Assembly: GCA_002068775.1 (NCBI GenBank)
Contig: MWAX01000161.1
Span: 1 to 39,901 of the forward strand
Source of the DNA: Actinobacteria bacterium ADurb.Bin346
GTDB lineage: Bacteria > Actinomycetota > Humimicrobiia > Humimicrobiales > Humimicrobiaceae
Length of the DNA: 39,901 bases
Direction: 5' to 3'
The translations under genes were made by a program, and so were the position numbers. The notes below the pieces were generated by a model. The model saw nothing but the letters and a program-made list of their open reading frames with translations. It made no database searches and was not told the DNA's origin. This document shows positions 3,062 to 28,682 of the stretch, in pieces. Each line of letters starts with the position of its first letter. Within the stretch, counting starts at the first letter, position 1.

Positions 3062-4378
3062 ATGGATAAAATATTATATATAGACTGCTTTTCAGGCATT
3101 AGCGGCGATATGATGGTCGGGGCATTTCTTGACATGCAATATAAAGGAATAGACCTTGAATTCTTTCAAAATGCACTCTACGGATTGGAAGTAAAAGGTT
3201 ATTCAATAAACGCATGCAAAAAAATGCGGGGGTCCATCATGGCTACTAAATTTAATGTCATTGTTGAAGAGCAGCAGCCACCCAGAAATTTTGAAGCAAT
3301 TAAGTGCCTGGTTTCAGGTGCCAGGCTGGAGGATGAAGTTAAAAAAACAGTAATTAAAATGTTTTCCATAATTGCAGAAGCTGAAGCAAAAATTCATGGC
3401 ACGAAACTTCAAAAAGTGCATTTCCATGAAGTTGGCGCTGTCGATTCAATTGTGGATATTGTTTGTGTTGCGCTGGCAATCAATAAACTGTCTCCCCGCG
3501 CAATCTACAGCAGAAGCATCCCTCTTGGAAGTGGAAAGGTAAACACAATGCACGGTGTGATTCCCGTACCGGCTCCTGCAACTGTTGAGATATTGACGGG
3601 GTTGCCTGTTTATGGCGGAGGATTTGATTATGAAGTCACGACTCCAACCGGAGCAGCTATTATTAAAACACTTGCAGATTATTTTGAAGACATACCTGAA
3701 ATGACAATAGAGTCAGTAGGAAATGGTGCGGGAGCGGCTATGAATACAAATCACCTGGAGCACCGGGAGCAGCATGAGCAGCAGGGACACCGGGGGCAAC
3801 AAGGGCAAAATAAGCATCAAAATCACCTGGAGCACCGGGAAAATTTAAAACATCCTGCAAATAGCGGTAAAAAAGAAGAACAGACCCTGCCTCCTGACAT
3901 ACTGAGGCTTATTGTTGGTACGACAACTGCTAAAAAATCTGAAGATAAGGTTTTACTTATTTCAACAAACATAGATGATGCAGCACCAGAAATAATAGGA
4001 CATGTGCAGGAAATGCTTTTATCTTATGGAGCTCTGGACTGCTGGACAGAGCCTGTATTCATGAAAAAAAACAGATTAGCATCCAAATTATGTGTCCTTT
4101 GTAAAAATGAAAATATCGACGATGTCATGAAGCTGATATTTACAGGCACATCTTCATTGGGCGTAAGAGTACAGGAAATATCAAGGTATTGTCTTGACAG
4201 GGCTATAAAGAAAGTGAAACTGCCTTATGGTGAAGCCGATGTTAAAATCGGATACTTCAGGGGAAAACAGGTCACTGTTTCACCGGAGTACGAATCATGC
4301 AGGATTCTTGCTGAGTGTACCGGCAAGCCCCTGAAGGAGGTTTACCGTGATCTTATCCTCTTTTTTTCGAGTAAATAA
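3062..4378 (+). CDS. larC: Nickel-pincer cofactor biosynthesis protein LarC (DUF111, nickel insertion)
   Basis: The N-terminus MDKILYIDCFSGISGDMMVGAFLD is the LarC/DUF111 signature, and HFHEVGAVDSIVDIV is also present. A His/Gln-rich internal linker lies between the N- and C-terminal domains. Confidence 0.88.
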   Translation: MDKILYIDCFSGISGDMMVGAFLDMQYKGIDLEFFQNALYGLEVKGYSINACKKMRGSIMATKFNVIVEEQQPPRNFEAIKCLVSGARLEDEVKKTVIKMFSIIAEAEAKIHGTKLQKVHFHEVGAVDSIVDIVCVALAINKLSPRAIYSRSIPLGSGKVNTMHGVIPVPAPATVEILTGLPVYGGGFDYEVTTPTGAAIIKTLADYFEDIPEMTIESVGNGAGAAMNTNHLEHREQHEQQGHRGQQGQNKHQNHLEHRENLKHPANSGKKEEQTLPPDILRLIVGTTTAKKSEDKVLLISTNIDDAAPEIIGHVQEMLLSYGALDCWTEPVFMKKNRLASKLCVLCKNENIDDVMKLIFTGTSSLGVRVQEISRYCLDRAIKKVKLPYGEADVKIGYFRGKQVTVSPEYESCRILAECTGKPLKEVYRDLILFFSSK

Positions 4379-5640: not shown

Positions 5641-6054
5641 ATGCCCGAGGAATCAATAAATATTTTTATCAGTAATATTTATGCAATAGCAATCTTTACC
5701 GGATTATTTGCAGCAATATTTCTTTGCCTGTTTTTTATTTCAAGAGTTCTAATTTTCAGGACCAGGAGATCAGCGCAGAGCCGCAGAGAAGAGAAAACAG
5801 CTCTCGATGCCGGAGACCAAAAACATGCCGGGACAATGTTAATTATAAGGAAAGACATTTACTTTAAAAAGAATCTGCTTGTTGCCGGTTTATTATTTAT
5901 ATTTACAGCATTGTTTATTATCCTTATTTTGCTCTCATTTCTATTTGCCACACAATTTCGTATGGACGGCAGTTTTTATATGATTTTTGCAATAATATTT
6001 ATAATCCTTGTAATGACTGTTTATATAGTCAGGTCAAAATTACTTGAAAGATAA
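5641..6054 (+). CDS. Three-TM membrane protein, putative NuoA-like subunit of the complex-I-like cluster
   Basis: It is the first gene of the cluster and lies 14 nt upstream of the NuoB-like gene. It is 137 aa, with TM1, a charged loop, then TM2 and TM3, which is NuoA-like topology. The canonical YECG and FD.E motifs are not recognisable. AAAGGA RBS. Confidence 0.45.
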   Translation: MPEESINIFISNIYAIAIFTGLFAAIFLCLFFISRVLIFRTRRSAQSRREEKTALDAGDQKHAGTMLIIRKDIYFKKNLLVAGLLFIFTALFIILILLSFLFATQFRMDGSFYMIFAIIFIILVMTVYIVRSKLLER

Positions 6055-6068
6055 TATTTTCTAAATCT

Positions 6069-6467
6069 ATGAGGTCACTTGTAAAAAATAATCTTAATAT
6101 TATTGTTGCGGGCTTTGGTTGCTGTAAGCAGGAAATACTGGCAACAACCGGCCCAACTTATGATATATCAAGATTTGGAGTTAATTTTGTCAGTGTCCCG
6201 GAAGAAGCAGATGTTCTTGTCATACAGGGATTCTACAATGAAATCGGGGAAGAAAGACTGCTTGAGATTTACAGCAGGATGAAAAAACCCAAATGGGTGA
6301 TAGCAACCGGCAAGTGCATAGTGGACAGATGTCTTCTTAATGAAGACTATAATTTTACTGAAAGGCTTGGGAAAATAATTAATGTTGATTTTTATGTACC
6401 CGGCTGCCCTCCCAGGCCAGAGGCTTTTATTTATGCAGTTCTGAGACTGCTTGAGGCAGGACAGTAA
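6069..6467 (+). CDS. nuoB: NuoB / hydrogenase small-subunit-like [4Fe-4S] protein
   Basis: The motifs GFGCCKQE...YDISRFGV...EADVLVIQG...KPKWVIATGKC...VDFYVPGCPPRPEAFIYAV parallel the NuoB/EchC/MbhJ pattern (GxxCC, YDxxRFG, PKWVIxxGxC, PGCPPRPEA). All four cluster-N2-type Cys are present. Confidence 0.85.
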   Translation: MRSLVKNNLNIIVAGFGCCKQEILATTGPTYDISRFGVNFVSVPEEADVLVIQGFYNEIGEERLLEIYSRMKKPKWVIATGKCIVDRCLLNEDYNFTERLGKIINVDFYVPGCPPRPEAFIYAVLRLLEAGQ

Positions 6468-6556
6468 TACATGCATAAACTGACAGAAAAAGATGTTATT
6501 TTTAAGATATCATTTTTAATTTTCTGCTTAAAAAATTGAGAACGGATAAATAAAAA

Positions 6557-8071
6557 TTGGCTAAAGAATTATATGACGGGATATATTCTTCTCATAAGAC
6601 AGTATTTATTGAAAAGATTGAAAAGAACCTGGGCTTTTATCTAAAAGACCATATCCTTGAGATAAAAAAACTTGGACAGGAATTACTTTGCGCTATCAGG
6701 CTTTCGGATCTGGACGATGTTTGCCAGGAACTTAATAAAAATCCGGAATTTGATATTAATATCTTAAACTCCGTAAGCCATTATAAAAGCAGAAATAAGC
6801 ATTGTCTTTTAATAGATCTTTCATCTGTCAGCAATAATTTCTCTATGCTGCTCAAAGTGGTTATGCCGCTGCCGGGAGATGCAGAAACCAGTCAGATTAT
6901 GCAGTTATTTGAATCCTCAATATCAGTATTAAAAAAGACATTTGAGGCTGCAGAGTTTTTCTCTGAGAGGAAAAACCTGCAGGAAGACAGCAGCGATATT
7001 ATAATTCAGGCACAGCAAATAGACGGACTGGACTGTTTTGATTTATATCTCTCGACAGAAGAGGACATGATAAAAAAAGCGTTTATAGATACAGGCATTG
7101 CAAGAGTTTCATCAAAAGAACTCCACAAAAACACTGTTTTACCTGATGTTCTTTCATGCATAAGCCGCTATGACCATTCTGCCGGTCTTTTTCCGGAACT
7201 GTGCATATGCCTTTCTTTTGAAGAATTGATGCAGCTGAAAGTGCCCAGGAGGGTGCAATATATAAGAATGCTTTTAAGTGAGCTTTACAGAGTTTCCAGC
7301 CATCTATACTTTGTATCACGAATTGCAAAAATCATTGGAGCAGAACTTGTATATAATCTTGTATTGCTTGAAAGAGAAAGAGCCTTAAGGCTGATAGAGC
7401 TTATTACCGGCTCGCGAATAAGCCCTAACTTCATAAGGATCGGCGGAGTAAAAAATGACCTTAATGCAGATAAGATAAAAGCAGCCAGAGAAACAATTGA
7501 AATACTTTACAGAAAGGTACGCAATATAGAAGCGCTTCTTCTTGATAACTCAGTAATATCCGCAAAGTTAAAAAACAGAGGTTCAGTCGATAGAGAAACT
7601 GCATTACTTTGCGGTGTCACAGGACCGAACCTCAGGGCCTGTGGCGCAAGATATGATATAAGAAAAAACCGGAACCTGCTTTTATATAAGGACATGTCTT
7701 TTATAATTGCTCTGGGAAAATACGGCGACTGTCTGGATAGAGTTCTGGTAAGGTTCAGGGAGATATACCAGTCAATAAAAATCATAGACCAGGCAGTTAA
7801 TGACCTGCCCGAGGAGCACATAAAAAAACTTATAAATCTTTCAGACCTGGCAATTCCTTTTACTGAAATGATATCCAGTGTTGAATGTCCGCACGGCGTA
7901 TTTAAAATATTTATGGAAATACAAGATGAATTAATACAGAATATTATTGTGCTCAGCCCCTCAAAAAACAGCGTCTATCTTGCAGAAAGAATACTGCCGG
8001 ACTCAAGATTTGAGGATGTCGAGCTTATTCTAGCAAGTCTTGATATAAACAGCGGTGAGCTAATATCCTGA
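6557..8071 (+). CDS. nuoCD: Fused NuoC-NuoD-like subunit (30-kDa plus 49-kDa / hydrogenase large-subunit fold), without NiFe cysteines
   Basis: The C-terminal ~330 aa carry NuoD-like blocks: RRVQYIRMLLSELYRVSSHL, RERALRLIELITGSRISPNFIRIGGVKNDL, GPNLRACGARYDIRKN...GKYGDCLDRVLVRFREIYQSIKII, ECPHGVF and the terminal ASLDINSGELIS. The N-terminal ~165 aa look NuoC-like (..FEAAEFFSERKNL). TTG start. Confidence 0.8.
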   Translation: MAKELYDGIYSSHKTVFIEKIEKNLGFYLKDHILEIKKLGQELLCAIRLSDLDDVCQELNKNPEFDINILNSVSHYKSRNKHCLLIDLSSVSNNFSMLLKVVMPLPGDAETSQIMQLFESSISVLKKTFEAAEFFSERKNLQEDSSDIIIQAQQIDGLDCFDLYLSTEEDMIKKAFIDTGIARVSSKELHKNTVLPDVLSCISRYDHSAGLFPELCICLSFEELMQLKVPRRVQYIRMLLSELYRVSSHLYFVSRIAKIIGAELVYNLVLLERERALRLIELITGSRISPNFIRIGGVKNDLNADKIKAARETIEILYRKVRNIEALLLDNSVISAKLKNRGSVDRETALLCGVTGPNLRACGARYDIRKNRNLLLYKDMSFIIALGKYGDCLDRVLVRFREIYQSIKIIDQAVNDLPEEHIKKLINLSDLAIPFTEMISSVECPHGVFKIFMEIQDELIQNIIVLSPSKNSVYLAERILPDSRFEDVELILASLDINSGELIS

Positions 8072-8151
8072 AAAGTGCTTAAAAATATTAAAAATATAAA
8101 ATCGTGACATTGGTCACCAGGTTGTAAAAAAATTATTAAATATGTGTAATT

Positions 8152-9087
8152 ATGCTTATTATATTTAAAAAAGTCATATACATATACCTGATACTTGGGC
8201 TGAATATTTATTTCTGTTCCTATTTTTTAAGCAAAATCTCTGCAAGGACTGAGCTGCGCAGAGGATATGTGGCTGCCAGGGCAGGCGGTTTTGGACGTCC
8301 CTTTGCCAGCATATTCAAGTATATGTCCAAGGAGCACAGATTAAGCGTCTGGGAAATGCTGCTGTTCTTTTTTTCATTCTTTATATGGACTGTAATACCA
8401 TTTTCGCAATCATTGATAATTATCAAATTTGATTTTGATATCATAGCTGTCATATTATTTTACCTTGTGCTTGTTTTTCTAATAATAATAAATGCCTGCA
8501 GCAGCTCATACGGCTTCATATATAATAATTTTTCCAGAAAAATCCTGATGATGTTCACATTCTTTATACCGCTGTTGTTCTGTATTGCAAGCATTGTACT
8601 TATCAGCAGGACTCTAAACCTAAAAGAGATCGTGGGCTCGCAATATCAGTACTGGAACATAATATTCCAGCCGCTCGGTTTTATAGCAGCAGTAACATCA
8701 GTTGTTATGCAGCTTAAGATGCTTGGCCTTACAGGAAAAAACCCTATTCTTTACTCTGAAACAGCAGAAAAAGAAGGGGCAGGTTTTGGCAGGCTTGTTA
8801 ACAGGACAGCAGAATATTCAATAATGTTTTTTCTGATCGTGATTATTGTACTGCTCTATCTTGCCGGCTGGGAAAGATTTTTCCTTATTAATGGAAATGT
8901 GATGTTTGGAATTAAATTCTATGTAGTTTTCTTCTTATTATTGTTTATTGATAAGGCAACGCCGAAGCTTAACGATTTTTATTATCTGAAAAGCGTAAAC
9001 TTCAAGTTTGTGATACCCATCTCAGTTATCAATTTTTTGCTGACTATGGTATTTTTTATTCTGAGAAATATATATAATCTGATTTGA
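8152..9087 (+). CDS. nuoH: NuoH-like polytopic membrane subunit (very divergent)
   Basis: It is 311 aa with about 8 TM segments, placed between the NuoD-like and NuoI-like genes as in nuo operons. The N-terminal loop SARTELRRGYVAARAGGFGRPFASIFKYMSKE echoes the NuoH ERK..A..Q.R.GP...G..Q..AD..K...KE region. Confidence 0.55.
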   Translation: MLIIFKKVIYIYLILGLNIYFCSYFLSKISARTELRRGYVAARAGGFGRPFASIFKYMSKEHRLSVWEMLLFFFSFFIWTVIPFSQSLIIIKFDFDIIAVILFYLVLVFLIIINACSSSYGFIYNNFSRKILMMFTFFIPLLFCIASIVLISRTLNLKEIVGSQYQYWNIIFQPLGFIAAVTSVVMQLKMLGLTGKNPILYSETAEKEGAGFGRLVNRTAEYSIMFFLIVIIVLLYLAGWERFFLINGNVMFGIKFYVVFFLLLFIDKATPKLNDFYYLKSVNFKFVIPISVINFLLTMVFFILRNIYNLI

Positions 9088-9116
9088 TTTTTTAATTGAC
9101 AGGTGGTTTTAGCTAT

Positions 9117-9548
9117 ATGAGACCGGTAATAAGAGATTTTTTTATAGAGTTTGGCAATATGTTCCGTAAGCCCAGGACTGTTGTATATCCAAAAGAAAAA
9201 ATAATAATCCCGGATGGAAGCAGGGGCATACCAAGGCTCAAGCTTGACCTGGATTCTCTGGAAGTGCTCTGCAATGGTTGTGGAGACTGTGCAAAAGCCT
9301 GTTCCGCCAGATGCATTAAAATAAAAAGAGGCATAGATGAAAACGGCAGGGAATTTTTAGAAGAGTTTAACATAGATCTTAACAGTTGTATTTTTTGCGG
9401 CAATTGTGTTGAGGTTTGTGAAAGGAAAGCAATTGAAATGACATACAGGCACCAGCTTGCCGATCAGGACAGAAACTCCTTCAAAATGGAAAAACAGGAT
9501 TTAATAAAACAGGCGGATTATTCAATAAGGGATTTTTGGACAAAATAA
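9117..9548 (+). CDS. nuoI: NuoI-like 2x[4Fe-4S] ferredoxin subunit
   Basis: There are two CxxCxxCxxxC motifs (CNGCGDCAKAC and CIFCGNCVEVC) and an N-terminal ..FRKPRTVVYPKEK.. resembling NuoI (T..YPEE). I prefer the ATG at 9117 (AGGTGG 10 nt upstream) over the track's TTG at 9096. Confidence 0.8.
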   Translation: MRPVIRDFFIEFGNMFRKPRTVVYPKEKIIIPDGSRGIPRLKLDLDSLEVLCNGCGDCAKACSARCIKIKRGIDENGREFLEEFNIDLNSCIFCGNCVEVCERKAIEMTYRHQLADQDRNSFKMEKQDLIKQADYSIRDFWTK

Positions 9549-10117
9549 TGGATGGCAAATTAATTTTAGGATTCCTGAATTACTTAATGCTCAGTCTCAT
9601 TTTTATTTTTGGACTGATTTCTCTGGCTGTAAAAGACCAGAAGAAGAAGCTCTCTTTTCTTTTCTTCATGCTTTTTTGCTCAGGTATATTGAGCTACCTT
9701 TTCTTTGCTAAAATAGCCTTTATGCTGCCTGGAATAATGCTGCTGTTTTTTTGTCTTTCAGTTTTAATTATGGTTGCCGGTCAGGAATATTTTGGTTATG
9801 GCAAACCACTGATCAAAGCCGGGAAAGAAGTTATGCCGGAAAGGCATAGCAGAGGCTGGTTTAATCCGGGAGTTATCATTAATCTTCTCTTATCTTTAAT
9901 ATTATGCATTGGTGCAGGAGTTTTATTTTATTATTTTAACAGAGATTTTTACCAGGACCTTGTACTGGTAGATACTTTTAAAGTCGCAGAAATGCAGCAG
10001 ATCGTAAATAATATAGGGTTAAATTATATGGCAGCAATCCTGATTATTTTTTGCGGGCTTGCCTCTTCATTTTTCTGGTTTTTGTGCATACTGGATAAAA
10101 AAGGTGATAAAAGTTGA
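9536..10117 (+). CDS. nuoJ: NuoJ-like membrane subunit
   Basis: It is a 193-aa protein with about 5 TM segments lying between the NuoI-like and NuoK-like genes. Its start overlaps the upstream stop (TTG at 9536, or ATG at 9548 in a TAATG overlap). The call rests on position, size and topology only. Confidence 0.5.
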   Translation: MDKIMDGKLILGFLNYLMLSLIFIFGLISLAVKDQKKKLSFLFFMLFCSGILSYLFFAKIAFMLPGIMLLFFCLSVLIMVAGQEYFGYGKPLIKAGKEVMPERHSRGWFNPGVIINLLLSLILCIGAGVLFYYFNRDFYQDLVLVDTFKVAEMQQIVNNIGLNYMAAILIIFCGLASSFFWFLCILDKKGDKS

Positions 10118-10464
10118 ACCTCCAATTCATAATACTATTCAGTTTTGCCATATTTTTACTTGGAATATTCGGGCTGACTTTTTACAGAAGCCTTTTATCT
10201 GTGCTGATCTCTTTTCAGCTTATAATTTTTTCAGCAACAATCAATTTTTTCGGGTTCTCATTATTTCTTTATAAGGCAATGACATGGGACAAGATATTTA
10301 TATTTTTTGCTTTTATCTCAATATATCTCGTGCTGTTCTCGATAGTATTTTATAATTATTCGATACAGACTGGAATCTATGAGCTTGATGTAAAAAATGA
10401 CTTCAGGTTTTTCAGATTCAGCAAGTCCGACTGGTGGGGAGAAGATAAAATTGGAGAAGATTAA
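10114..10464 (+). CDS. nuoK: NuoK-like 3-TM membrane subunit (both canonical membrane Glu apparently absent)
   Basis: MNLQFIILFSFAIFLLGIFGLTFYRSLLSVLISFQLIIFSATINFF parallels the NuoK pattern (..GL.G...RRN.L..L...E.M.NA.NL). The TTG start overlaps the NuoJ-like stop (GTTGA), with an AAGGTGA RBS. Confidence 0.6.
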   Translation: MNLQFIILFSFAIFLLGIFGLTFYRSLLSVLISFQLIIFSATINFFGFSLFLYKAMTWDKIFIFFAFISIYLVLFSIVFYNYSIQTGIYELDVKNDFRFFRFSKSDWWGEDKIGED

Positions 10465-12073
10465 AGCCCTGCTTGACAGCATATACCCGTTCTATCCTGT
10501 ATTATTTATACTGGGTTCCGGCATAATCACTGTATTTTTTGGCATGTCCGGCAGGAAACCAGTTAAGTTATTTATAATAATACTCACTGCATGCTCAATA
10601 GCTGCAGGTATTTTTATAAATATATATTCTTATAACCTGAAAGGAGAATTTTCAAATTTTCTTTTTAATTTCAGCGGCCTTCAGGTTGCACTCACATCCA
10701 TGGTTTTATTTTCTGCTTTAAACGCACTGCTGTTTTTATGCTTGTTTAATTTTAGAAAAGATAATTTGATAAAAATAATCCTTATGTTTGATTTATGTAT
10801 TTTATCCTTTATTTTTTTCATTCCATCTGTAAATTTTATAGTGATGTTTTCAAGCCTGACGTTTTTTATAACAGGTGTTTTTCAGCTTGTAACATCCTTA
10901 AACAGAGGTGTCTTTTTAAGTTCAATGCCCGAGTATACAATAAAAAACAATATTATAAGGTTTTTTCTGTTATCTGCATTATCTTTGCTATTAATGTTCC
11001 TGGGATTTTCCCTTCTTTTTGGAGCCACAGATTTAAAAACCTTCAGCCAGGTGCTCGAATCAGATTTTAAAAACACCTCTCTTATTAAAACAGGGTTTTT
11101 CATTATCCTGCTGAGCGCATTTTTATTTTCAGGGTTTGTACCGCTGCACAGTCCTTATATGAAAATGCAGAAAAGGATTGAGAAGTCCTCAACAAGCATA
11201 ATATGGCTTTTATATATTTTAGCGGGAATAATTTTGCTTTTAAAATTAAAAGATATCTTTTTCTTTTTTCTTGACAGTGATAATAAATACATAATAATTG
11301 CACTCCTTGTGGTTTCAGCAGCTTGTGTTTTTGCCGGAAATCTTGGAGCTCTTAAAACTACGAGCATAAGAAGGATCTTTTCATTTTTTGTACTTTCAAT
11401 CCTGGGAACTTCAGTCCTCGGTTTTGTGCAGTATGGGCTCGGATTGTTTGACGGGACAACTGTTTTAAAATATATAATTTCGAACTGTATACTTCTTGGT
11501 GTGACTTATATGCCGCTGATGCTGGTATTTTACTCACTTGAAACAAATGGTGACGACTCTCTTGAAAGACTAAGAGGGTTTGGCAAAAGAAATATTTATC
11601 TTTCCATTAACATGGTCATTATCATGCTTTCATTAAGCGGGCTTCCGGGTACCTATGGTTATCTTTCAAGGATGTCTTTATTATCTGTATTCCTGAGCGA
11701 TTATCGTACAATTATTGACCAGTCGGGCGGGAACTTTATCTCAGGGCTGAAAATTTCAAACATGCTGGTCGCCTTTATTTCATGGGCTTTTATTGCAGCA
11801 AACATCATAAGGCTGATCGTTGTGATTTATGGCAAAGAAATCACAAAAAAGGACATATATGCAACGGATTTACAATCCCGGGAAGTTATAGAAAACTCCG
11901 GCACTGTAAAAAGTAAAACTGTGCAGGGAAGTGCTTTTATACCTGTTTTCATTTATATTTATGTGACAATCTTCACCCTGCTGATAGTACTTACAGGAGT
12001 TGCGGGGCTACTGGAGATTCTCGGATTAAAAACATTATTTAGCGGATTCAGCATTTTAAGCCTGAATTTTTAA
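10451..12073 (+). CDS. Antiporter-like subunit (NuoL/M/N / Mrp-type, Proton_antipo_M-like), the only one in the cluster
   Basis: It is about 540 aa with about 14 TM segments. Motif remnants are FSGFVPLHSPYM (cf. FK...PFH.W.PD.Y), GALKTTSIRRIFSFFVLS (cf. A..Q...KR.LAYSSI) and SLSGLPGTYGYLSR (cf. SLAG.PP..GF.GK). The track ORF starts at 10397 inside nuoK. The TTG at 10451 (GGGGAG 8 nt upstream) is more plausible, but the start is uncertain. Confidence 0.65.
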   Translation: MEKIKALLDSIYPFYPVLFILGSGIITVFFGMSGRKPVKLFIIILTACSIAAGIFINIYSYNLKGEFSNFLFNFSGLQVALTSMVLFSALNALLFLCLFNFRKDNLIKIILMFDLCILSFIFFIPSVNFIVMFSSLTFFITGVFQLVTSLNRGVFLSSMPEYTIKNNIIRFFLLSALSLLLMFLGFSLLFGATDLKTFSQVLESDFKNTSLIKTGFFIILLSAFLFSGFVPLHSPYMKMQKRIEKSSTSIIWLLYILAGIILLLKLKDIFFFFLDSDNKYIIIALLVVSAACVFAGNLGALKTTSIRRIFSFFVLSILGTSVLGFVQYGLGLFDGTTVLKYIISNCILLGVTYMPLMLVFYSLETNGDDSLERLRGFGKRNIYLSINMVIIMLSLSGLPGTYGYLSRMSLLSVFLSDYRTIIDQSGGNFISGLKISNMLVAFISWAFIAANIIRLIVVIYGKEITKKDIYATDLQSREVIENSGTVKSKTVQGSAFIPVFIYIYVTIFTLLIVLTGVAGLLEILGLKTLFSGFSILSLNF

Positions 12074-12163: not shown

Positions 12164-12934
12164 ATGGAGACTTACAATAAAAGATTTAATTTAAAGCATC
12201 TTCTTATAATCATTTTTATACTTGTCATAGTGCTTGCAATTGTTATCAGCATCAGCCAGTTTACTTTCAGAAAAGAATACCAGCCGCCAACAGCCCTTAT
12301 CAACATGCTGCCAAGATATAGGGTCATAGACATGGATAATATCCCGATAAAAAGTGATAAAGACGGCGACGGCATCAATGATCAGAAGGATATTCTGATG
12401 GGGGCTAAAAGTCAGCTTATAGAGCCGGCAGTAAATATTTTCAGTGAGGGCTTAAATGAAACCAACTATTATAATGGGGGAGATCCGCCACCCGGACTTG
12501 CAGTTTGCACTGATATAATTGCAAGGGCTTTTAAGGCAGCAGGTTTTGATATAAGGCAGCTTGTCTACGAAGATATCAGGGATAATTTTTCAGAATATCC
12601 TTTAAGAACCCTCTGGGGACAAACCAGGCCGGACAAGGATATAGATTACAGGAGAATACAGAATCTTGAGATTTTTTTTAAAAGAAATGCCAAAGCTCTT
12701 ACCCTGACTTTCAATTACACAAGTGAGCAGGATTTAATGAAGTGGCTGCCGGGAGATATTGTTTTTTTTGACATGGACAGGGATGGATATACAGATAATG
12801 CAGGGATAATCTCAGATTTCACTACAAGAAAGGGAATACCAAAAATAATTTATAATTATATAGATCCGGGACACACCATAGAGTCAGAAATCCTGACAAC
12901 TGCAAAGATAACAGGCCACTACAGGTGGCAATGA
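12164..12934 (+). CDS. DUF1287-domain protein with N-terminal membrane anchor
   Basis: An N-terminal TM segment (LLIIIFILVIVLAIVISI) is followed by GLAVCTDIIARAFKAAGFDIRQLVYEDI...GDIVFF.., the pattern I associate with DUF1287 proteins. Confidence 0.6.
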   Translation: METYNKRFNLKHLLIIIFILVIVLAIVISISQFTFRKEYQPPTALINMLPRYRVIDMDNIPIKSDKDGDGINDQKDILMGAKSQLIEPAVNIFSEGLNETNYYNGGDPPPGLAVCTDIIARAFKAAGFDIRQLVYEDIRDNFSEYPLRTLWGQTRPDKDIDYRRIQNLEIFFKRNAKALTLTFNYTSEQDLMKWLPGDIVFFDMDRDGYTDNAGIISDFTTRKGIPKIIYNYIDPGHTIESEILTTAKITGHYRWQ

Positions 12935-14951: not shown

Positions 14952-15584
14952 ATGGCAAAATATCAGGATCTCGCAGACGCCATCATTGCAGGTGACAATG
15001 TCAAAAGCAAGGAAATAACACAGAAGCTTGTTGACAGTGGCGTCAATGCCATCGAAATACTCAACGATGGCCTGGTGCCGGGAATGGAGGTTGTTGGCGC
15101 AAAATTTAAAGCCAACGAGATGTACATTCCTGAAGTACTGATTGCGGCAAGGGCAATGCATGCAGCAATGGATATCATCAAACCAATGCTTTCAGAATCC
15201 GGAGCAGAAATGAAGGGGACAATAGTGATAGGTACAGTTCAGGGCGACCTTCATGATATTGGTAAAAATCTTGTTGGCATGATGCTCGAAGGCGGAGGCT
15301 ACACAGTTGTTGACGTCGGGGTGGATGTTCCTTCAGACAAATTTGTTGAGGAAGTAAAGAAAAGCGGAGCAAAAGTGGTTGGCCTTTCAGCATTGCTTAC
15401 CACGACAATGCCTGTAATGAAAGACGTTATCAGCGCAATAAGAGCTGATGCTGCAACAAAGAGTACAATGGTTATGGTTGGCGGCGCACCACTGACACAG
15501 GAATATGCAGATTCAATTGGCGCAAATGGTTATGCTCCTGATGCTTCAAGTGCAGTTGACCTTGCAAAGAAGCTTATGGGCTGA
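14952..15584 (+). CDS. Cobalamin-binding corrinoid protein (MtmC/MtbC/MttC-like methyltransferase partner)
   Basis: An N-terminal B12-binding-2 cap helix bundle (LADAIIAGD...EMYIPEVLIAARAM) is followed by GTVQGDLHDIGKNLV (DxHxxG), GLSALLTTT and GGAPLTQEYADSIGA. AAGGAGAAG RBS. Confidence 0.88.
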   Translation: MAKYQDLADAIIAGDNVKSKEITQKLVDSGVNAIEILNDGLVPGMEVVGAKFKANEMYIPEVLIAARAMHAAMDIIKPMLSESGAEMKGTIVIGTVQGDLHDIGKNLVGMMLEGGGYTVVDVGVDVPSDKFVEEVKKSGAKVVGLSALLTTTMPVMKDVISAIRADAATKSTMVMVGGAPLTQEYADSIGANGYAPDASSAVDLAKKLMG

Positions 15585-15718: not shown

Positions 15719-16186
15719 TCAGGTTCCGAGAGCTTTATAAAGGTTTGCCATTTCAATTGCAGAAAGCGCTGCCTGCCAGCCGCTGTTTCCCAGTTTTGTG
15801 CCCGCCCTTTCTATTGCCTGTTCCAGTGTATCAGGCGTTATAACACCAAAAATCACCGGAAAATCCATAGACAGCGCAGTCTGAGAAATGCCTTTTATCA
15901 CTTCGCTTGAAATGTAGACATTGTGTGAGGTGTCACCTTTAAGAATTGCTCCGAGACATATTACGGCATCATATTTTTTTGACTGAGCCATTGCTTTTGC
16001 TGCTGCCGGTATCTCGAAAGCACCGGGCACCCATGCAACAGAGATGTCGGCTTTTTTGCAATTATGCCTTTCCAGGCAGTCAACTGCTCCATCCAGAAGC
16101 TTGCTGGTTATAAATTCATTATATCTGCTTATCACTACACCAAATTTCAGCCCGCTTGCGTCAAGCTTTCCTTCAAATACTTGCAT
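15719..16186 (-). CDS. ribH: 6,7-dimethyl-8-ribityllumazine synthase
   Basis: [32 protein letters not shown]...[10 protein letters not shown]...[10 protein letters not shown].. is a classic RibH sequence. It is the last gene of the rib operon. Confidence 0.95.
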
Positions 16187-16297
16187 TTTTCCTCCCTTAA
16201 TTATTTTTAATTACTGTTTTTAAAAATGTACCCATTAAACTCTGAGTTTACTGCTGACATCGCAGCCTTATGGTAAAGTATTAATAAATTATTAAAA

Positions 16298-17545
16298 TTA
16301 TTTAAGCATATGTTTCAATTTGGTTTTTTTGGTCTGAAGATACCGCCTGTTGTTTTCATTTGGCTCAATGATAACGGGCAGTATTTTTGTAATTTTTATT
16401 CCATAACCCTCAAGGCCTATGATTTTTCTTGGATTATTAGTCATAAGCTGTATATTTGAAAGACCCAGGTCCGATAGAATCTGAGCGCCTATCCCGTAAT
16501 CGCGCATGTCAGCTTCAAAACCGAGCTCAAGGTTTGCTTCAACTGTATCAAGGCCTCTATCCTGCAGCTCATATGCTTTCATTTTATTGCATAGGCCTAT
16601 ACCGCGTCCCTCCTGTGCCATATACAGAAGCACGCCATACCCTTTTCTGTTTATAATATTGAAAGCCTCGTCAAGCTGCTGTCCGCAGTCACATCTTTGT
16701 GAGCCAAATGTATCGCCTGTAAGACACTGGGAATGTACACGGACCGGCACATCATTCTTACCTTTGATATCCCCTTTTATAAAAGCTATGTGGATCTCTC
16801 CATCAATTATAGACTTATAAGTCACAGCCCTGAAAATTCCCCATTTGGTTGGAAGGCTTACTTCCGCAGCCCGTTCGATAAGTTTCTCTTTTGTTTTTCT
16901 GTACCTGATAAGCTCCTCAATAGTGATTATGGGGAGCCTGTGTTTTTTTGATAATTTTTTTATATCTGCAAGACGTGCAACTTCACCATCTTCACGTATT
17001 ATTTCGCATATTACTCCTGCAGGGAACAAGCCTGCAATCCCTGCCAGATCAACTGCAGCTTCGGTGTGCCCCGCTCTTACAAGCACACCTCCATCATGTG
17101 CTCTTAGAGGAAAAATATGCCCGGGTATTGTAAAATCTTCAGGTTTAGATGCCGGATCTATAAAAGTTTTTATTGTAAGAGCTCTGTCACTGGCTGAGGC
17201 TCCTGAGCCTTTTTTTATCATGGAATCTACAGACATCGCCATTGAAGGGGACGAACGGGTCTGTTCAATGCGGCCTGATTTTTTAATTCTTGGGGGTGCT
17301 GCCGTATCCATCATTGGTATTTGCAGTTCCTCAAGTCTTTTATGCTCACAGGGCATGTAGAGCAAGCCCCTTCCGTGAGTCATAAAAAAATTTATGGATT
17401 CTACAGTCACTTTTTCAGCCGGTTGAAAAAGAACCCCCTCATTTTCTTCAGAGCGGTCATCGACAATAATTATTATTTTTCCTTTTTTGATTGCTGAAAC
17501 GGAGTCCTCTATGCCTGAAAAAATCTTCTCATTTGATGAAACCAT
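16298..17545 (-). CDS. ribBA: Bifunctional 3,4-dihydroxy-2-butanone-4-phosphate synthase / GTP cyclohydrolase II
   Basis: The DHBP synthase part carries ..DRSEENEGVL.., PGHIFPLRA and RAGHTEAAVDLA. The GCH II part carries VRVHSQCLTGD.FGS.RCDCG.QL, YMAQEGRGIGL..K..AY.LQD.GLDTV.AN and DYGIGAQIL.DLG. Confidence 0.95.
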   Translation of the reverse strand: MVSSNEKIFSGIEDSVSAIKKGKIIIIVDDRSEENEGVLFQPAEKVTVESINFFMTHGRGLLYMPCEHKRLEELQIPMMDTAAPPRIKKSGRIEQTRSSPSMAMSVDSMIKKGSGASASDRALTIKTFIDPASKPEDFTIPGHIFPLRAHDGGVLVRAGHTEAAVDLAGIAGLFPAGVICEIIREDGEVARLADIKKLSKKHRLPIITIEELIRYRKTKEKLIERAAEVSLPTKWGIFRAVTYKSIIDGEIHIAFIKGDIKGKNDVPVRVHSQCLTGDTFGSQRCDCGQQLDEAFNIINRKGYGVLLYMAQEGRGIGLCNKMKAYELQDRGLDTVEANLELGFEADMRDYGIGAQILSDLGLSNIQLMTNNPRKIIGLEGYGIKITKILPVIIEPNENNRRYLQTKKTKLKHMLK

Positions 17546-18200
17546 ATTCCACCAGCTTCTCCTTTAAATTGTCGTCATTTTGATTTCCGGCGCCCACAGG
17601 ATTTATGATTCCCGTGTCTGAAAGTATCCTGAAAATATACCTTGATAAAAGGTCCACTTCTATATTTACTTTATCTCCTTCTTTAACGCGGGACAGCGAC
17701 GTGTTTTCAAATGTGTGCGGGATTATTGCAACTGCAAAGAAACCCCTGTCCGCTTCTGAAACAGTTAAGCTGATTCCGTCCAGCGCAACGGAGCCCCTTG
17801 GAGCAAGAAAGGGCGAAAGACCTTCAGGAATTTTGAGTTCTATCCTGTATGAATTACCCTTTTTTTCAATCCCTGTTATTTCTGCAGTGCCATCCACATG
17901 GCCGCTGACGAAATGCCCGCCAATTTTTGCAGAAGGGGTGAGAGAGCTTTCAAGGTTTACAATTTTTCCTGCTCCCATATTTTTAAAAGTAGTTTTTTCA
18001 AGTGTTGAATATGAAATATCACAAATAAATCCTGAAGGCTTTAATTTTTTTACAGTCAGGCAGCAGCCATCCACAGCAACGGAATCACCGGCTGAAAGGC
18101 CTTTCAATATCTGATTGCATGAGATTTCAATAAGCTTGCATTCATTGCCTTCGCTGACACCCCTTATCTTACCAGTCTCTTTTATTATGCCTGTAAACAT
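17529..18200 (-). CDS. ribE: Riboflavin synthase (alpha chain)
   Basis: MFTGIIKETGKI...GDSVAVDGCCLTV...TLEKTTF......GGHFVSGHVDG...ALDGISLTV is the duplicated lumazine-binding repeat pattern. Confidence 0.95.
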   Translation of the reverse strand: MFTGIIKETGKIRGVSEGNECKLIEISCNQILKGLSAGDSVAVDGCCLTVKKLKPSGFICDISYSTLEKTTFKNMGAGKIVNLESSLTPSAKIGGHFVSGHVDGTAEITGIEKKGNSYRIELKIPEGLSPFLAPRGSVALDGISLTVSEADRGFFAVAIIPHTFENTSLSRVKEGDKVNIEVDLLSRYIFRILSDTGIINPVGAGNQNDDNLKEKLVEYGFIK

Positions 18201-18217
18201 TTTTTTACCTTCCTGCT

Positions 18218-19396
18218 CTAAAGAAGAGCATTCTTTTTTTTAGGATATGCGGTTATCATTAAATCACCATCTATATTTTTAACACTTTCAATTTCAAGCA
18301 CGGGACAATCTGAAAGAAGTTTAGTGCTCAGATTTCCGAACATACCATACCTGCTGTCATTTCCAATTATCTTTGGTGCCATAAATAAAATCATTTTGTC
18401 AAAAAGTTTATTTTTTAAAAAGCTTGAACAGAGCATCTGGCCTGCTTCGACCAGCACGGAAGTTACTTCATAATTATCATGAAGTATTTTAAGTATTTGT
18501 GAAAGGTCAAGAAGTGTAATGTCAGTATTTTCTTTTTGTTTTTGCAGCTCTTTTATTTCAGTGATTTCCATTCCCATTTTTTTAAGTAAAGCAGCTTTTT
18601 TTCTCTGCTCATTGTTTAAGGATGAAGTAAAAACAATGGTTTTTATTCTTTCTGAAGTGCATGCAATCTTTGATTGGGGGCTTATCCTGAGACTGCTGTC
18701 AAGTATTGCACGTAAAAATTTCCTGCTTTTTAAAGGGACAGATGATGTTTTGGCAATACGGAGATGCAGCAGAGGGTCATCTGTCAGGACAGTATTTATG
18801 CCTGTGAGAATACAGTCATTTTTAAGCCTCATTTTCTGCACCAGACGCCTTGATTTTTCTGAGGTTATCCATTTGGAATTCCCGGAATCAAGAGCTGTCC
18901 TGCCGTCCAGGCTTGAAGCAATTTTAATTGTCACAAATGGACGTCCGGAAGTTATGGACTTAAAAAAAATCTCATTCTGTTTTTTTGCGCGCTCTTCAAG
19001 CAAACCATAGTCAACAATGACGCCGGCAGCTTTAAGGATTTCAAAACCTCTTCCGCTGACTTCAGGATTAGGGTCCCTGCACGCTGCAACAACTCTGCTG
19101 ATGCCATTCTTTATAATAGCCTCTGTGCAGGGGGGCGTTTTTCCATAGATGCAGCACGGCTCAAGGCTGACATACATAGTTGCACCGGCAAGAAGCTTTT
19201 TATCAGGGCAGGCATTAATGGCTTCCACTTCAGCGTGACTGCTGCCTGCTTTCTTATGATAGCCGCTGGACAGCATCTTTCCGTCTTTTACAATTACAGC
19301 ACCGACCATTGGATTGGGGCTGGTAAAGCCTCGCGCTTTTTCAGCAATCGAAATGGCAAGCTTCATGTATCTTTTATCTTCTGCACTAAAATTCAT
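18218..19396 (-). CDS. ribD: Bifunctional diaminohydroxyphosphoribosylaminopyrimidine deaminase / 5-amino-6-(5-phosphoribosylamino)uracil reductase
   Basis: The deaminase zinc motifs HAEVEA and LEPCC..GKTPPC are followed by a reductase domain (KIASSLDGR.A...G.S.WIT). It is the first gene after the FMN riboswitch. Confidence 0.93.
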   Translation of the reverse strand: MNFSAEDKRYMKLAISIAEKARGFTSPNPMVGAVIVKDGKMLSSGYHKKAGSSHAEVEAINACPDKKLLAGATMYVSLEPCCIYGKTPPCTEAIIKNGISRVVAACRDPNPEVSGRGFEILKAAGVIVDYGLLEERAKKQNEIFFKSITSGRPFVTIKIASSLDGRTALDSGNSKWITSEKSRRLVQKMRLKNDCILTGINTVLTDDPLLHLRIAKTSSVPLKSRKFLRAILDSSLRISPQSKIACTSERIKTIVFTSSLNNEQRKKAALLKKMGMEITEIKELQKQKENTDITLLDLSQILKILHDNYEVTSVLVEAGQMLCSSFLKNKLFDKMILFMAPKIIGNDSRYGMFGNLSTKLLSDCPVLEIESVKNIDGDLMITAYPKKKNALL

Positions 19397-26632: not shown

Positions 26633-27820
26633 ATGAAAAAAAAGTTTAGTTCAGGTATTGCCATAATATTTTTAATAGCGGCAGCATTGCTTGTATTTTC
26701 AGGCCTGCCGGGCTGCAGCAATTATGCGCAGACCATAATCACAATGTCCACTGCTATTGAAAGCACGACGGCAACAACAATGGTGCCGGCTGCCCCGGCA
26801 ACAGAAGAGACGGCACAGGAAGAAAAGATTCCTGCAAATTTTGAACTTGTATACATTCCGAAAATCGATGTGCCATGGTTTGATGTTGTGCAGAAAGGCA
26901 TAGAGCAGTGTGCCAGAGATTATGGTTTTAAAGTCACTGTTACGGCGCCTCCAAAACTGGACCCTGCAATACAGGCACAGATTGTCCTTGACCTTATAGG
27001 AAAAACTGCCGATGCAGTGATTGTGTGCCCGATAGAGGAGGCTTCCATGGATATTGCACTGCAGAAAGCCAGCTCTGCAGGAATAATGACATTTGGAAGC
27101 GAGGGCTCAAACCTTAAGAATATAAGTTATGATTTTGAGTCGATTTCCAATGAATCTTTTGGGCAGGCAATAATGCAGTCAGCCATAAAATACTCCGGAA
27201 ACAGCGGAAGTTATGCTGTTTCTGTTGGATTTTTGTCATCGGCTGCTCAAAATGAATGGGCAGATGCTGAAATAGCGCTCCAGAAACAATCAGCGCCCGG
27301 GATGGTAAATATTCTCGGATATTCTAAAGGCACCGACAGATTTGAAGATAATGAAGACCAGGCGATTGCTTTAACAAAAATAACTGAAATTATTACTGCT
27401 AATCCAGACCTGAAACTGATAGTGGGTAACTCAATGACAAGCGGGCCTGCTGCGGGGGAGGCAATAAAAAAACAGAAATTGAAAGGCAAGTTATTTTATG
27501 TGGGCACAGGCCTTCCGCTGACTGCTGGTGGTTACATTAAAGACAATATTATCCAGGAAGCTTTTTTCTGGGATCCATATCTGACAGGCTACTCGCTGGG
27601 ATTCATGGCTTTTAAGGCCTGGGAAGGCAAACCGCTCATAAAGGGCGATGCGGTGACTCTGCCCGGCGGAGCAAAACTTGCAGGGTATGAAACACTCACA
27701 GAAGGAACCGGCACTGCAGGAGCAAAAGTGATTTATGGAAATGCTGCAGTATCTGTAAATAAGGAAAACATGGATAGCTGGTATAAAAAATTTGAAGAGT
27801 ATGGCTGGCCTCAATTTTAA
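26633..27820 (+). CDS. Lipoprotein, periplasmic-binding-protein type I (sugar / AI-2-type ABC substrate-binding protein), orphan
   Basis: It has a signal peptide with a lipobox (LLVFSGLPGC), a Thr/Ala-rich linker, and then ..VYIPKIDVPWFDVVQKGIEQCARDYGFKV......ADAVIVCP.. typical of the Peripla_BP_4/LsrB/RbsB-like fold. No permease or ATPase gene is adjacent. Confidence 0.75.
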   Translation: MKKKFSSGIAIIFLIAAALLVFSGLPGCSNYAQTIITMSTAIESTTATTMVPAAPATEETAQEEKIPANFELVYIPKIDVPWFDVVQKGIEQCARDYGFKVTVTAPPKLDPAIQAQIVLDLIGKTADAVIVCPIEEASMDIALQKASSAGIMTFGSEGSNLKNISYDFESISNESFGQAIMQSAIKYSGNSGSYAVSVGFLSSAAQNEWADAEIALQKQSAPGMVNILGYSKGTDRFEDNEDQAIALTKITEIITANPDLKLIVGNSMTSGPAAGEAIKKQKLKGKLFYVGTGLPLTAGGYIKDNIIQEAFFWDPYLTGYSLGFMAFKAWEGKPLIKGDAVTLPGGAKLAGYETLTEGTGTAGAKVIYGNAAVSVNKENMDSWYKKFEEYGWPQF

Positions 27821-28682
27821 TACTGTAAAAGGCTATATTGCCATAACTAAACTAAAACTTGTTGCACTGCTTTTTTTCACCGGTTTTACAAGTGTGCTGA
27901 TTGCATCCACCATATACGGGTTTGACTGGGCAGAGATATCCATGATATCAGTTGCAATAATACTAAGTGTTATGGGCTCCAATGCAACAACTGCTTATAT
28001 TGATCGTGAAATGGATAAAATAATGAACAGGACCAGCGCAAGGCCTGTTCCCTCCGGAACTATAAATCCTCCTGTTAATGCCCTGATATTCGGAATAGCT
28101 CTTGTCATTGCAGGCATAATACTGGCTGCATTTACAAGCTACTATGCAGCAGTGTTCATTTTTCTTGGTTTTATTGACAGTGCAATTATATACAATGCAT
28201 TATTAAAAAAACGCTCTCCCATGAATATATTGTACGGCTCTCCAGCAGGCGGGATGCCTGTACTTGCCGGATGGATAGCAGTTTCCAATACAAGGCTAAA
28301 CCTTATTGCAATACTTATGTTTTTGCTTGTAATAATCTGGACCCCGATGCACATATGGAGCCTTGCATATTTTTACAGCGACGACTATAAAAAGGCAGGT
28401 GTGCCCATGCTGACTTCAATATGGTCGCCGCGCAGAGCATTTTTATTGATCGGAGGACTGAATATCCTGCTTGTGTTTTTATCTGTATTTATAGGCGCGC
28501 TCTTTAAATTAAGCATGTTATATGTAATTATCTCTGCTGCACTTGGCGCAGTCGTCCTGGCTCTTAGCATCATCCTTATAATAAATAATAAAAAAAGAAC
28601 AGCATGGGCTTTATTTAAATTCTCAAGTCCTTATCTTGCAGTAATTTTTTTACTTCTGCTTGCGGAGTATTTATGGATTTAA
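27792..28682 (+). CDS. ctaB: UbiA-superfamily prenyltransferase, closest in motif to protoheme IX farnesyltransferase (heme O synthase)
   Basis: ..YIAITKLKLVALL......NATTAYIDREMDKIMNRTSARPVPSG.. matches the CyoE/CtaB signature (N.YIDRD.D..M.RT..RP.P.G). It has about 9 TM segments and later reads WTPMHIWSLA..Y.DDY..AGVPML. It overlaps the SBP gene by 29 nt. Confidence 0.75.
   Translation: MKSMAGLNFNTVKGYIAITKLKLVALLFFTGFTSVLIASTIYGFDWAEISMISVAIILSVMGSNATTAYIDREMDKIMNRTSARPVPSGTINPPVNALIFGIALVIAGIILAAFTSYYAAVFIFLGFIDSAIIYNALLKKRSPMNILYGSPAGGMPVLAGWIAVSNTRLNLIAILMFLLVIIWTPMHIWSLAYFYSDDYKKAGVPMLTSIWSPRRAFLLIGGLNILLVFLSVFIGALFKLSMLYVIISAALGAVVLALSIILIINNKKRTAWALFKFSSPYLAVIFLLLLAEYLWI

Follow-up and report, generated by a model that had tools for sequence, protein, structure and literature searches.

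Loss of the canonical proton-relay residues and quinone-site ligands in a conserved complex I-like operon of uncultured Actinomycetota

Can the membrane arm of respiratory complex I be maintained by selection once the residues associated with its proton pathway have been replaced? It has long been asked how quinone chemistry drives pumping via the charged central axis of the complex, and this still open question is raised by a 39,901-nucleotide stretch of DNA (hereafter the window; contig MWAX01000161.1 of assembly GCA_002068775.1) from Actinobacteria bacterium ADurb.Bin346. Positions 5641-12073 of its forward strand (+) hold eight co-oriented nuo-like open reading frames (ORFs), packed tightly or overlapping, in the order A-like, NuoB, NuoCD, NuoH, NuoI, J-like, NuoK and a single NuoN-like antiporter subunit. 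A first reading made from the DNA letters (the original prediction) had claimed that the membrane-arm subunits encoded here lack the canonical proton-pathway residues. We find that this holds both in the window and across the family, and that the loss extends to the NuoH Glu157 position and to the His and Tyr of the NuoD quinone site. The operon is under purifying selection across at least 34 loci.

Both Pfam and NCBIfam relate six of the eight ORFs (B, CD, H, I, K and N) to subunits of complex I, and all six side with Nuo over hydrogenase-type families in these hidden Markov model (HMM) libraries. The set is very divergent, with NCBIfam scores mostly far under the equivalog cutoffs; the exception is the NuoB subfamily model. 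Comparison of profiles with hhalign gave probabilities of 97.8-99.9% for the B, CD, H and I proteins against their Escherichia coli counterparts and 99.3% for N against a NuoN profile. The same operon, in identical order, was found at 33 further loci (34 including the window): five N-like orthologues came from a word-indexed protein search and their contigs bear the same operon, and 28 further loci came from a scan in which each GTDB species was represented by one genome. Unless otherwise stated, family counts for the N-like protein refer to these 34 members.

The NuoN-type antiporter-like gene (10397..12073, +; Pfam Proton_antipo_M E 4e-13) encodes the subunit in which the relay residues can be followed one by one. 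Its register was set by phmmer against E. coli NuoN and by hhalign, in which a profile built from six orthologues was compared with a small NuoN profile; the two were concordant, and the E. coli residue numbers were checked on the K-12 sequence. Both alignments show that the motif blocks picked out in the original prediction were the correct ones, while several residues within them are reassigned. Glu133 in transmembrane helix (TM) 5 corresponds to Thr155 of the window protein (10859..10861, +), in a column that holds Thr, Ser, Val, Cys or Ile and is acid-free throughout the family. The Asp that had been proposed for this position (D132, in MFDLCIL) aligns to E. coli Leu110 in TM4 and is Asp in just 4 of the 34 members; TM5 therefore has no acid, and the finding is strengthened by the correction. 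Lys217, at the end of TM7a, corresponds to Phe244 (11126..11128, +; Tyr in 27 members, Phe in six and His in one), one residue ahead of the Ser that had been named as its replacement. Lys247 of TM8 is matched by Gly277 (11225..11227, +), which is Gly in 34/34. The TM10 His305 is replaced by Ile335, not by the Leu first suggested, and the column is mostly Phe or Ile. At the remaining positions, Lys158 corresponds to Arg188 (Arg 19, Gly 9, Glu 4, Lys 2) and His224 to His251 (Gln 28, His 6). The Glu/Lys/Lys triad at the TM5, TM7 and TM8 columns is thus found in 0/34 members, and the wider Lys/His/Glu relay is largely replaced in all 34, as had been claimed from the window alone.

The TM12 position behaves differently. 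Lys395 in TM12b corresponds to Arg425 in the window (11669..11671, +), so the Lys-to-Arg change originally described is correct for this protein; it does not stand as a family feature, with Arg present in 10 members and the position deleted in 17. Among about 22 library representatives, this column holds Lys in four and Arg in about nine, and is absent in the rest. The deletion belongs to the larger of the two main subgroups (loci L005, L011-L029 and L031-L033), in which 9-13 residues are missing and the TM12 break motif GLPGTxGYxxR (window positions 11639-11671) is removed, whereas the subgroup that includes the window retains it.

With an identity to E. coli NuoN of about 16-19%, we considered that the canonical Lys and Glu might be present and merely out of register. 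We examined this with a positive control in which 113 canonical NuoN-like proteins were aligned to the family HMM by hmmalign. Their relay residues fell in the expected columns, with Glu at E133 in 107, Lys at K158 in 103, Lys at K217 in 85, His at H224 in 95, Lys at K247 in 55 and His at H305 in 75, and the register is therefore not an artefact. The control is weaker at TM8 (Lys in 55, Gly in 37) and fails at TM12. An AlphaFold2 (AF2) model of the N-like protein (predicted local distance difference test, pLDDT, 73; predicted template modelling score 0.75) places the mapped sites where they are expected in the structure, in the middle of TM5, at the helix break that ends TM7a, in the middle of TM8 and just past the TM12 break, and Foldseek finds NuoN chains as its nearest relatives (template modelling score 0.66-0.77). 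In addition, TM5, TM7a and the central part of TM8 are devoid, across the family, of any conserved Glu, Asp or Lys that a shifted alignment could bring into place, and no family member with a TM5 Glu or a TM7/TM8 Lys was found in a library of 1.84 billion proteins. The conserved charges of the N-like protein (K57, K214, R260, K283, R325, R326, E382, D387 and R472) were mapped onto the helices of the AF2 model, and each of them sits in a loop or at the end of a helix, none mid-membrane. A misalignment is thus very improbable, and we rejected it on the agreement of phmmer, hhalign and hmmalign, the canonical control and the AF2 helix map.

The NuoK-like subunit (10114..10464, +) is a weaker match to its family, with Pfam Oxidored_q2 at E 2.8e-5 (under the Pfam threshold) and phmmer against NdhE at E 4e-6. 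The alignment of the K family with the single E. coli NuoK sequence reached an hhalign probability of 19%, which is a further point on the side of misregistration. The phmmer comparison with solved NdhE/NuoK chains pairs LISFQLIIFSATIN with LMSIELLLNAVNLN; from this pairing and the family columns, Gln35 (10216..10218, +) stands opposite E. coli Glu36 of TM2, with Gln in 28 and His in three of 31 members. The replacement of the TM2 Glu and the lack of an acid in TM3 had both been noted for the window, and both apply to the whole family: no member has an Asp or Glu in TM3 (residues ~61-84), with D59, at the edge of the loop, as the sole acid close by. The profile alignments accordingly place no canonical Lys or Glu at the TM5, TM7 and TM8 columns of NuoN or in TM2 and TM3 of NuoK. 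Separately, the K-like protein carries a conserved C-terminal tail of about 30 residues (residues 85-116; 10366-10464), which closes with a nearly invariant DWWGED and has no counterpart in canonical NuoK.

The NuoH-like subunit (8152..9087, +; Pfam NADHdh E 1e-25; hhalign 97.8%) is altered in the same direction. The E-channel Glu157 is replaced family-wide by Leu, Phe or Ile (Phe in the window), and the TM cores of the K, N and A-like proteins contain no conserved carboxylate. The acidic TM5-6 loop of NuoH is lost or charge-reversed, with D213 changed to Ser, Thr or Asn, E218 to Lys or Arg (window K196) and E220 to Tyr or Thr. Arg286 has become an invariant Asp (window D267), and the equivalent of Lys274 is kept in 29/29. 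The pattern of charge reversals, as read from the alignments, suggests that the interface with the NuoD loop has been re-wired rather than merely degraded.

The electron-transfer ligands tell the opposite story from the relay. The NuoB-like protein (6069..6467, +; Pfam Oxidored_q6 E 5e-20; PRK06411 118.8 bits against a cutoff of 116; hhalign 99.5%) carries the cluster-N2 cysteines C18, C19, C83 and C113, equivalent to E. coli C63, C64, C129 and C158, and these are invariant in 24/24. The NuoI-like ferredoxin subunit (9096..9548, +; Pfam Fer4_7; TIGR01971 100.8 bits; hhalign 99.7%) has two complete four-cysteine motifs for N6a and N6b (C59, C62, C65, C69 and C98, C101, C104, C108), all invariant in 29/29. 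In the fused NuoC/NuoD-like protein (6557..8071, +; Pfam Complex1_49kDa E 2e-50; hhalign against E. coli NuoCD 99.9%), the quinone ligands have not been kept. The quinone-site His (E. coli NuoCD H224) is Leu, Phe or Ile in all members (window Leu158), and the Tyr (Y273) is Trp in 16, Tyr in six and His in three (window His207); these two E. coli residues are equivalent to His38 and Tyr87 of Thermus thermophilus Nqo4. Around them, a set of family-specific residues is found. The quinone-site His loop carries an invariant acidic loop, DGLDCFD (residues 156-162), with C160 in the β1-β2 loop; PELCICL (residues 213-219) contributes the invariant, family-specific C216 and C218; and ECPHG (residues 443-447) replaces EAPKGE, with invariant C444 and H446, the latter at the Lys/Arg position. 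Judging from their placement in the alignment, these four Cys and one His near the former NiFe/quinone site could form a new redox or metal site.

These residues open the question of whether the scaffold has been recruited to another task altogether, either catalysis at the NuoD Cys/His pocket, with a soluble or envelope compound as substrate, or a structural or assembly role together with an extracytoplasmic DUF1287 protein. The D part has MbsL of the sulfane-sulfur reductase MBS as its best sequence match in PDB, as such a role might lead one to expect; the leading relatives are near-tied (MbsL 141 bits, NdhH 139, Nqo4 135), NCBIfam models put NuoD first, and the grouping of the B, D, H, I, K and N proteins with Nuo rather than with hydrogenase-type families speaks against it. 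A NiFe hydrogenase, also considered, was ruled out by the missing L1 and L2 cysteines: neither the L1 (RxCGxCxxxH) nor the L2 (DPCxxCxxH) motif is present, the L1 region reading SRYDHSAG and the C-terminus SLDINSGELIS, and the CD-like protein has no Pfam NiFe-hydrogenase match. In 32 loci the DUF1287 protein (12164..12934, +; Pfam DUF1287 E 3e-39), which has an N-terminal membrane anchor, is encoded immediately 3' of the N-like gene and in the same orientation; the median gap between the two is 9 nucleotides. A promoter and terminator scan found no plus-strand terminator-like site between the two genes and gave no definition of the transcription unit, and a search for a solved relative of DUF1287 by sequence found none. 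It is probably a ninth gene of the operon, uncounted in the original prediction. The linkage may be mere synteny, since the whole neighbourhood, including an AI-2E transporter, LarC, UDG, a 3D-domain protein and riboflavin genes, is syntenic across the clade. On balance we regard recruitment to such a role as improbable, even though the invariant cysteines and histidine at or near the old active site, as seen in the alignments, would suit it.

Is such an operon still in use? Family HMMs recover the order A-B-CD-H-I-J-K-N in every locus of sufficient length, with exactly one antiporter-like gene per locus, and within ±10 kb of the operon no locus has homologues of E. coli NuoE, NuoF, NuoG, NuoL or NuoM. 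All 28 of the loci from the genome scan belong to metagenome-assembled genomes of uncultured Actinomycetota, one of which bears the name Candidatus Hydromicrobium and falls in class Humimicrobiia. When 1.84 billion representatives were searched exhaustively with HMMER using the N-like profile, about 25 full-length family clusters emerged at ≥200 bits, isolated by a score gap from ordinary NuoN at about 83 bits. For the CD subunit, at least 292 homologues were found at E≤1e-10, and the best 120 are all family members of about 500 residues, labelled NuoD or hypothetical protein.

A decaying pseudo-operon under relaxed selection was also weighed, and the membrane subunits offer it some footing. 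Evolution is fastest in the A-like, J-like and N-like proteins, which share 26-33% identity between the two main subgroups, and slowest in B and I, which share 56-59%; N has the highest or near-highest ratio of nonsynonymous to synonymous substitution rates (dN/dS) in most pairs. These ratios, estimated in close pairs by the Nei-Gojobori method, are nevertheless below 0.5 for every subunit (N 0.18-0.45; K 0.09-0.22; CD, H and I 0.02-0.46). Of the 230 gene copies, 220 span 90% or more of their family model within one ORF and the remaining 10 are cut by contig ends, with no internal stop or frameshift in any. The gene order, moreover, is fixed in 34 loci across deep divergence, in a clade where identity in these subunits has fallen to about 25-30%. 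The earlier argument that eight intact ORFs speak against decay is therefore borne out by selection across orthologues, and a pseudo-operon, ruled out by ORF integrity and dN/dS, is the least credible of the explanations that we weighed.

The two ORFs that were not recognized occupy the places of nuoA and nuoJ. The A-like membrane protein (5641..6054, +) has about three TM helices and a long TM1-2 loop, and its assignment comes from its position and topology. Found in 24/24 loci extending that far, with an invariant MPEES at the N-terminus, it is unmatched by the Pfam and NCBIfam NuoA models; a Pfam scan of every member was empty even at E≤10, hhalign against E. coli NuoA gave a probability of 1.6%, and a PDB profile search was empty. 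The J-like membrane protein (9536..10117, +), with five predicted TM helices, stands at the nuoJ position. Its 30 members are unmatched by Pfam NuoJ even at E≤10, and the hhalign probability against E. coli NuoJ is 1%. A PDB profile search produced one weak ND6 match (E 0.007) amid noise, and Foldseek matches to a low-confidence AF2 model (pLDDT 59, five helices) were mostly NdhG, NuoJ or ND6, none significant. We treat the two as probable NuoA and NuoJ equivalents on the grounds of position and topology. Neither the remodelled catalytic pocket, nor the fact that these two proteins are unrecognizable by sequence, nor the DUF1287 gene had been part of the original prediction.

What, then, might the complex do? 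Its earlier interpretation as a non-pumping scaffold, a complex with a different coupling or a decaying operon is supported overall, with decay now excluded. We propose that the operon encodes a functional, clade-specific minimal derivative of complex I, a membrane-anchored, non-pumping oxidoreductase with a structural membrane arm, and we give this reading roughly an even chance. Since no NADH-oxidising module is present, electrons would most likely enter at NuoI from a ferredoxin-type donor. They would follow an intact wire of two [4Fe-4S] clusters in NuoI and then the N2-type cluster in NuoB, and would finish in a remodelled pocket where NuoB, NuoD and NuoH meet, in which the canonical quinone ligands are gone and a new invariant set of Cys and His would take their place. 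As the recognised relay residues have all been lost, we infer that the membrane arm, left without any recognised ionisable relay residue, would no longer act as a redox-driven ion pump; it would be kept as a structural anchor and as a scaffold that helps to form the pocket, and the enzyme would be a non-electrogenic, or at most scalar, membrane-bound oxidoreductase. The E. coli NuoN variants K247A and K395A retain ~6-17% of the electron-transfer and pumping activity in proteoliposomes (PMC13073174). The canonical coupling mechanism would not tolerate the Gly found at the K247 position in every family member. A more specific version of the proposal sees in this lineage a naturally 'charge-neutralised' complex I: an undescribed ferredoxin-driven reductase of a non-quinone substrate (disulfide, polysulfide or metal-dependent chemistry being examples), whose membrane arm would be purely structural and whose new Cys/His set (C160, C216, C218, C444 and H446) would stand beside N2. 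This we offer tentatively, as a possibility with the balance somewhat against it.

Several points weigh against an arm that does not pump. The case is built solely on the disappearance of the residues known to take part, so that a path made of others would escape it. A low-energy anaerobic organism is expected to conserve energy, not to waste it. Candidates for such a path can be named: Lys283 of the N-like protein, conserved in 33/34 at a helix kink six residues past the TM8 Lys position; the Arg or Lys retained at the TM12 position in part of the family (R/K425); the conserved polar residues Q163, N146, N399 and N469 and several Tyr in the same protein; and Gln35 of the K-like protein, itself a conserved polar residue. 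The NuoA and NuoJ equivalents, whose identity is drawn from position and topology, belong among these reservations as well. Together they make up a rival account in which H+ or Na+ would still be moved, either by a non-canonical path through K283, R/K425, Q163 and Asn or Tyr residues of the N-like protein, Q35 of the K-like protein and K255 and D267 of NuoH, or by the NuoH/A/J/K region alone. It gains from R472, also conserved in 33/34, from the prediction that TM7 and TM12 of the window protein are discontinuous, from the purifying selection on the membrane subunits, and from NuoH itself, with its invariant K274 equivalent and its invariant Asp at the Arg286 position. It has against it that the conserved N-like charges all lie outside the middle of the membrane in the AF2 model, that the TM cores of the K, N and A-like proteins are devoid of conserved carboxylates, that the TM12 break has been deleted in half of the family, and that the exit subunits NuoL and NuoM are missing from the surroundings of all loci. 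We consider ion movement of this kind rather unlikely, and continue with the non-pumping oxidoreductase as our preferred reading.

The family genes are currently labelled 'NADH-quinone oxidoreductase subunit D' or hypothetical protein in databases, and metabolic reconstructions of acetogenic Actinomycetota of the Humimicrobiia type may therefore wrongly assign a proton-pumping complex I to these organisms, or overlook the complex. Our search of the literature on this family, on Humimicrobiia energy metabolism and on complex I without NuoL/M found the family undescribed in what is searchable. Some related UBA1414 genomes are said to encode no NADH-quinone oxidoreductase (Merino et al. 2020), and nuo terms were not found in the supplements of that study; this statement would fit annotation pipelines that overlook the divergent operon. 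Gene starts also call for some revision. The N-like protein likely begins at TTG 10451, not at 10397, with GGGGAG located 10 nucleotides upstream and orthologues that begin at the equivalent MIRNLL. The J-like protein likely starts at ATG 9548 instead of 9536, and the NuoI-like protein, whose family alignment opens at residue 8, may start at an ATG at ~9117.

Other features of the window concern its redox and cofactor genes. Upstream of the operon, in the window as in 17 related loci, is a gene for a LarC-type nickel-insertion protein (3062-4378, +), with the opposite-strand AI-2E transporter between the two. This arrangement may be plain synteny, and nickel insertion is a curious function to find beside a hydrogenase-descended subunit with new Cys/His motifs. 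On the other side of the operon, a corrinoid protein of the methyltransferase-cognate type (14952-15584, +; best NCBIfam match MtgC-like, under cutoff) adjoins a riboflavin cluster (15719-19396, -) of RibH, RibBA, RibE and RibD. Further away, a UbiA-family gene (27792-28682, +) scores above the TIGR01473 heme O synthase cutoff (239.7 against 210.3 bits); it hints at a heme-copper oxidase, or at heme O being used in some other way, in a lineage described as one of anaerobes that use the Wood-Ljungdahl pathway.

In this family, evolution has removed every known relay residue together with the quinone ligands, and the scaffold is still held under purifying selection. If the complex does not pump, it reveals what the membrane arm contributes structurally and offers structural and biophysical studies a natural, minimal and uncoupled point of reference; if it does, present residue-based models are incomplete.

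Among known systems, the closest in gene content and order is the 11-subunit ferredoxin-dependent complex I/NDH-1 (Nuo without NuoEFG, as in cyanobacterial NDH-1 and the Nuo11 of many anaerobes). As in those complexes, the B, C/D, H, I, K and N proteins match Nuo models best, no N-module is encoded nearby, and the N2 and N6a/N6b ligands are intact. In contrast to them, the family has one antiporter-like subunit, not three; the His and Tyr of the quinone site have not been kept as conserved residues; replacements are found at NuoK E36 and E72, NuoH E157 and NuoN E133, K217 and K247 alike; and the NuoA and NuoJ equivalents cannot be recognized by sequence. The family does not match the Mrp (CPA3) antiporters, which combine MrpA/MrpD bearing conserved Glu and Lys with MrpB, C, E, F and G: the relay residues are absent, and the other operon genes are homologues of the Nuo Q-module.

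Other relatives share single traits of the family. EchA, HycC and MbhH retain the Lys/Glu relay. The Ech, formate hydrogenlyase (FHL, Hyc) and membrane-bound hydrogenase (MBH) complexes resemble the family in having a minimal membrane arm with one antiporter-like subunit and a NuoH homologue, and in using ferredoxin-type or formate-derived electrons, yet they carry the NiFe L1/L2 motifs, whereas the family has neither these motifs nor the relay. Ech and FHL-1 also have no NuoK, A-like or J-like subunits, which the family possesses. The MBS/Mbx and 'Ehr' complexes likewise have a NuoD/large-subunit homologue without NiFe cysteines or a canonical quinone site, and MbsL is the nominal best PDB match. 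They differ in bearing Mrp-type modules and several antiporter-like subunits, and ion translocation is assumed for them as these antiporters look functional; the family has Nuo-like gene order and HMM affinities, a single antiporter-like subunit without the relay, and no Mrp genes at its loci. The function of Ehr-type hydrogenase-related complexes is itself largely unknown (PMC6349859). Finally, the engineered E. coli mutants (NuoN K247A and K395A; NuoK E36 and E72 variants) are neutralised at the same positions. Single NuoN changes there nearly abolish electron transfer and pumping (PMC13073174), whereas in the family the positions have all changed at once under natural selection, and this joint change in a conserved enzyme implies a different mode of working. 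The family is a new variant within the complex I superfamily.

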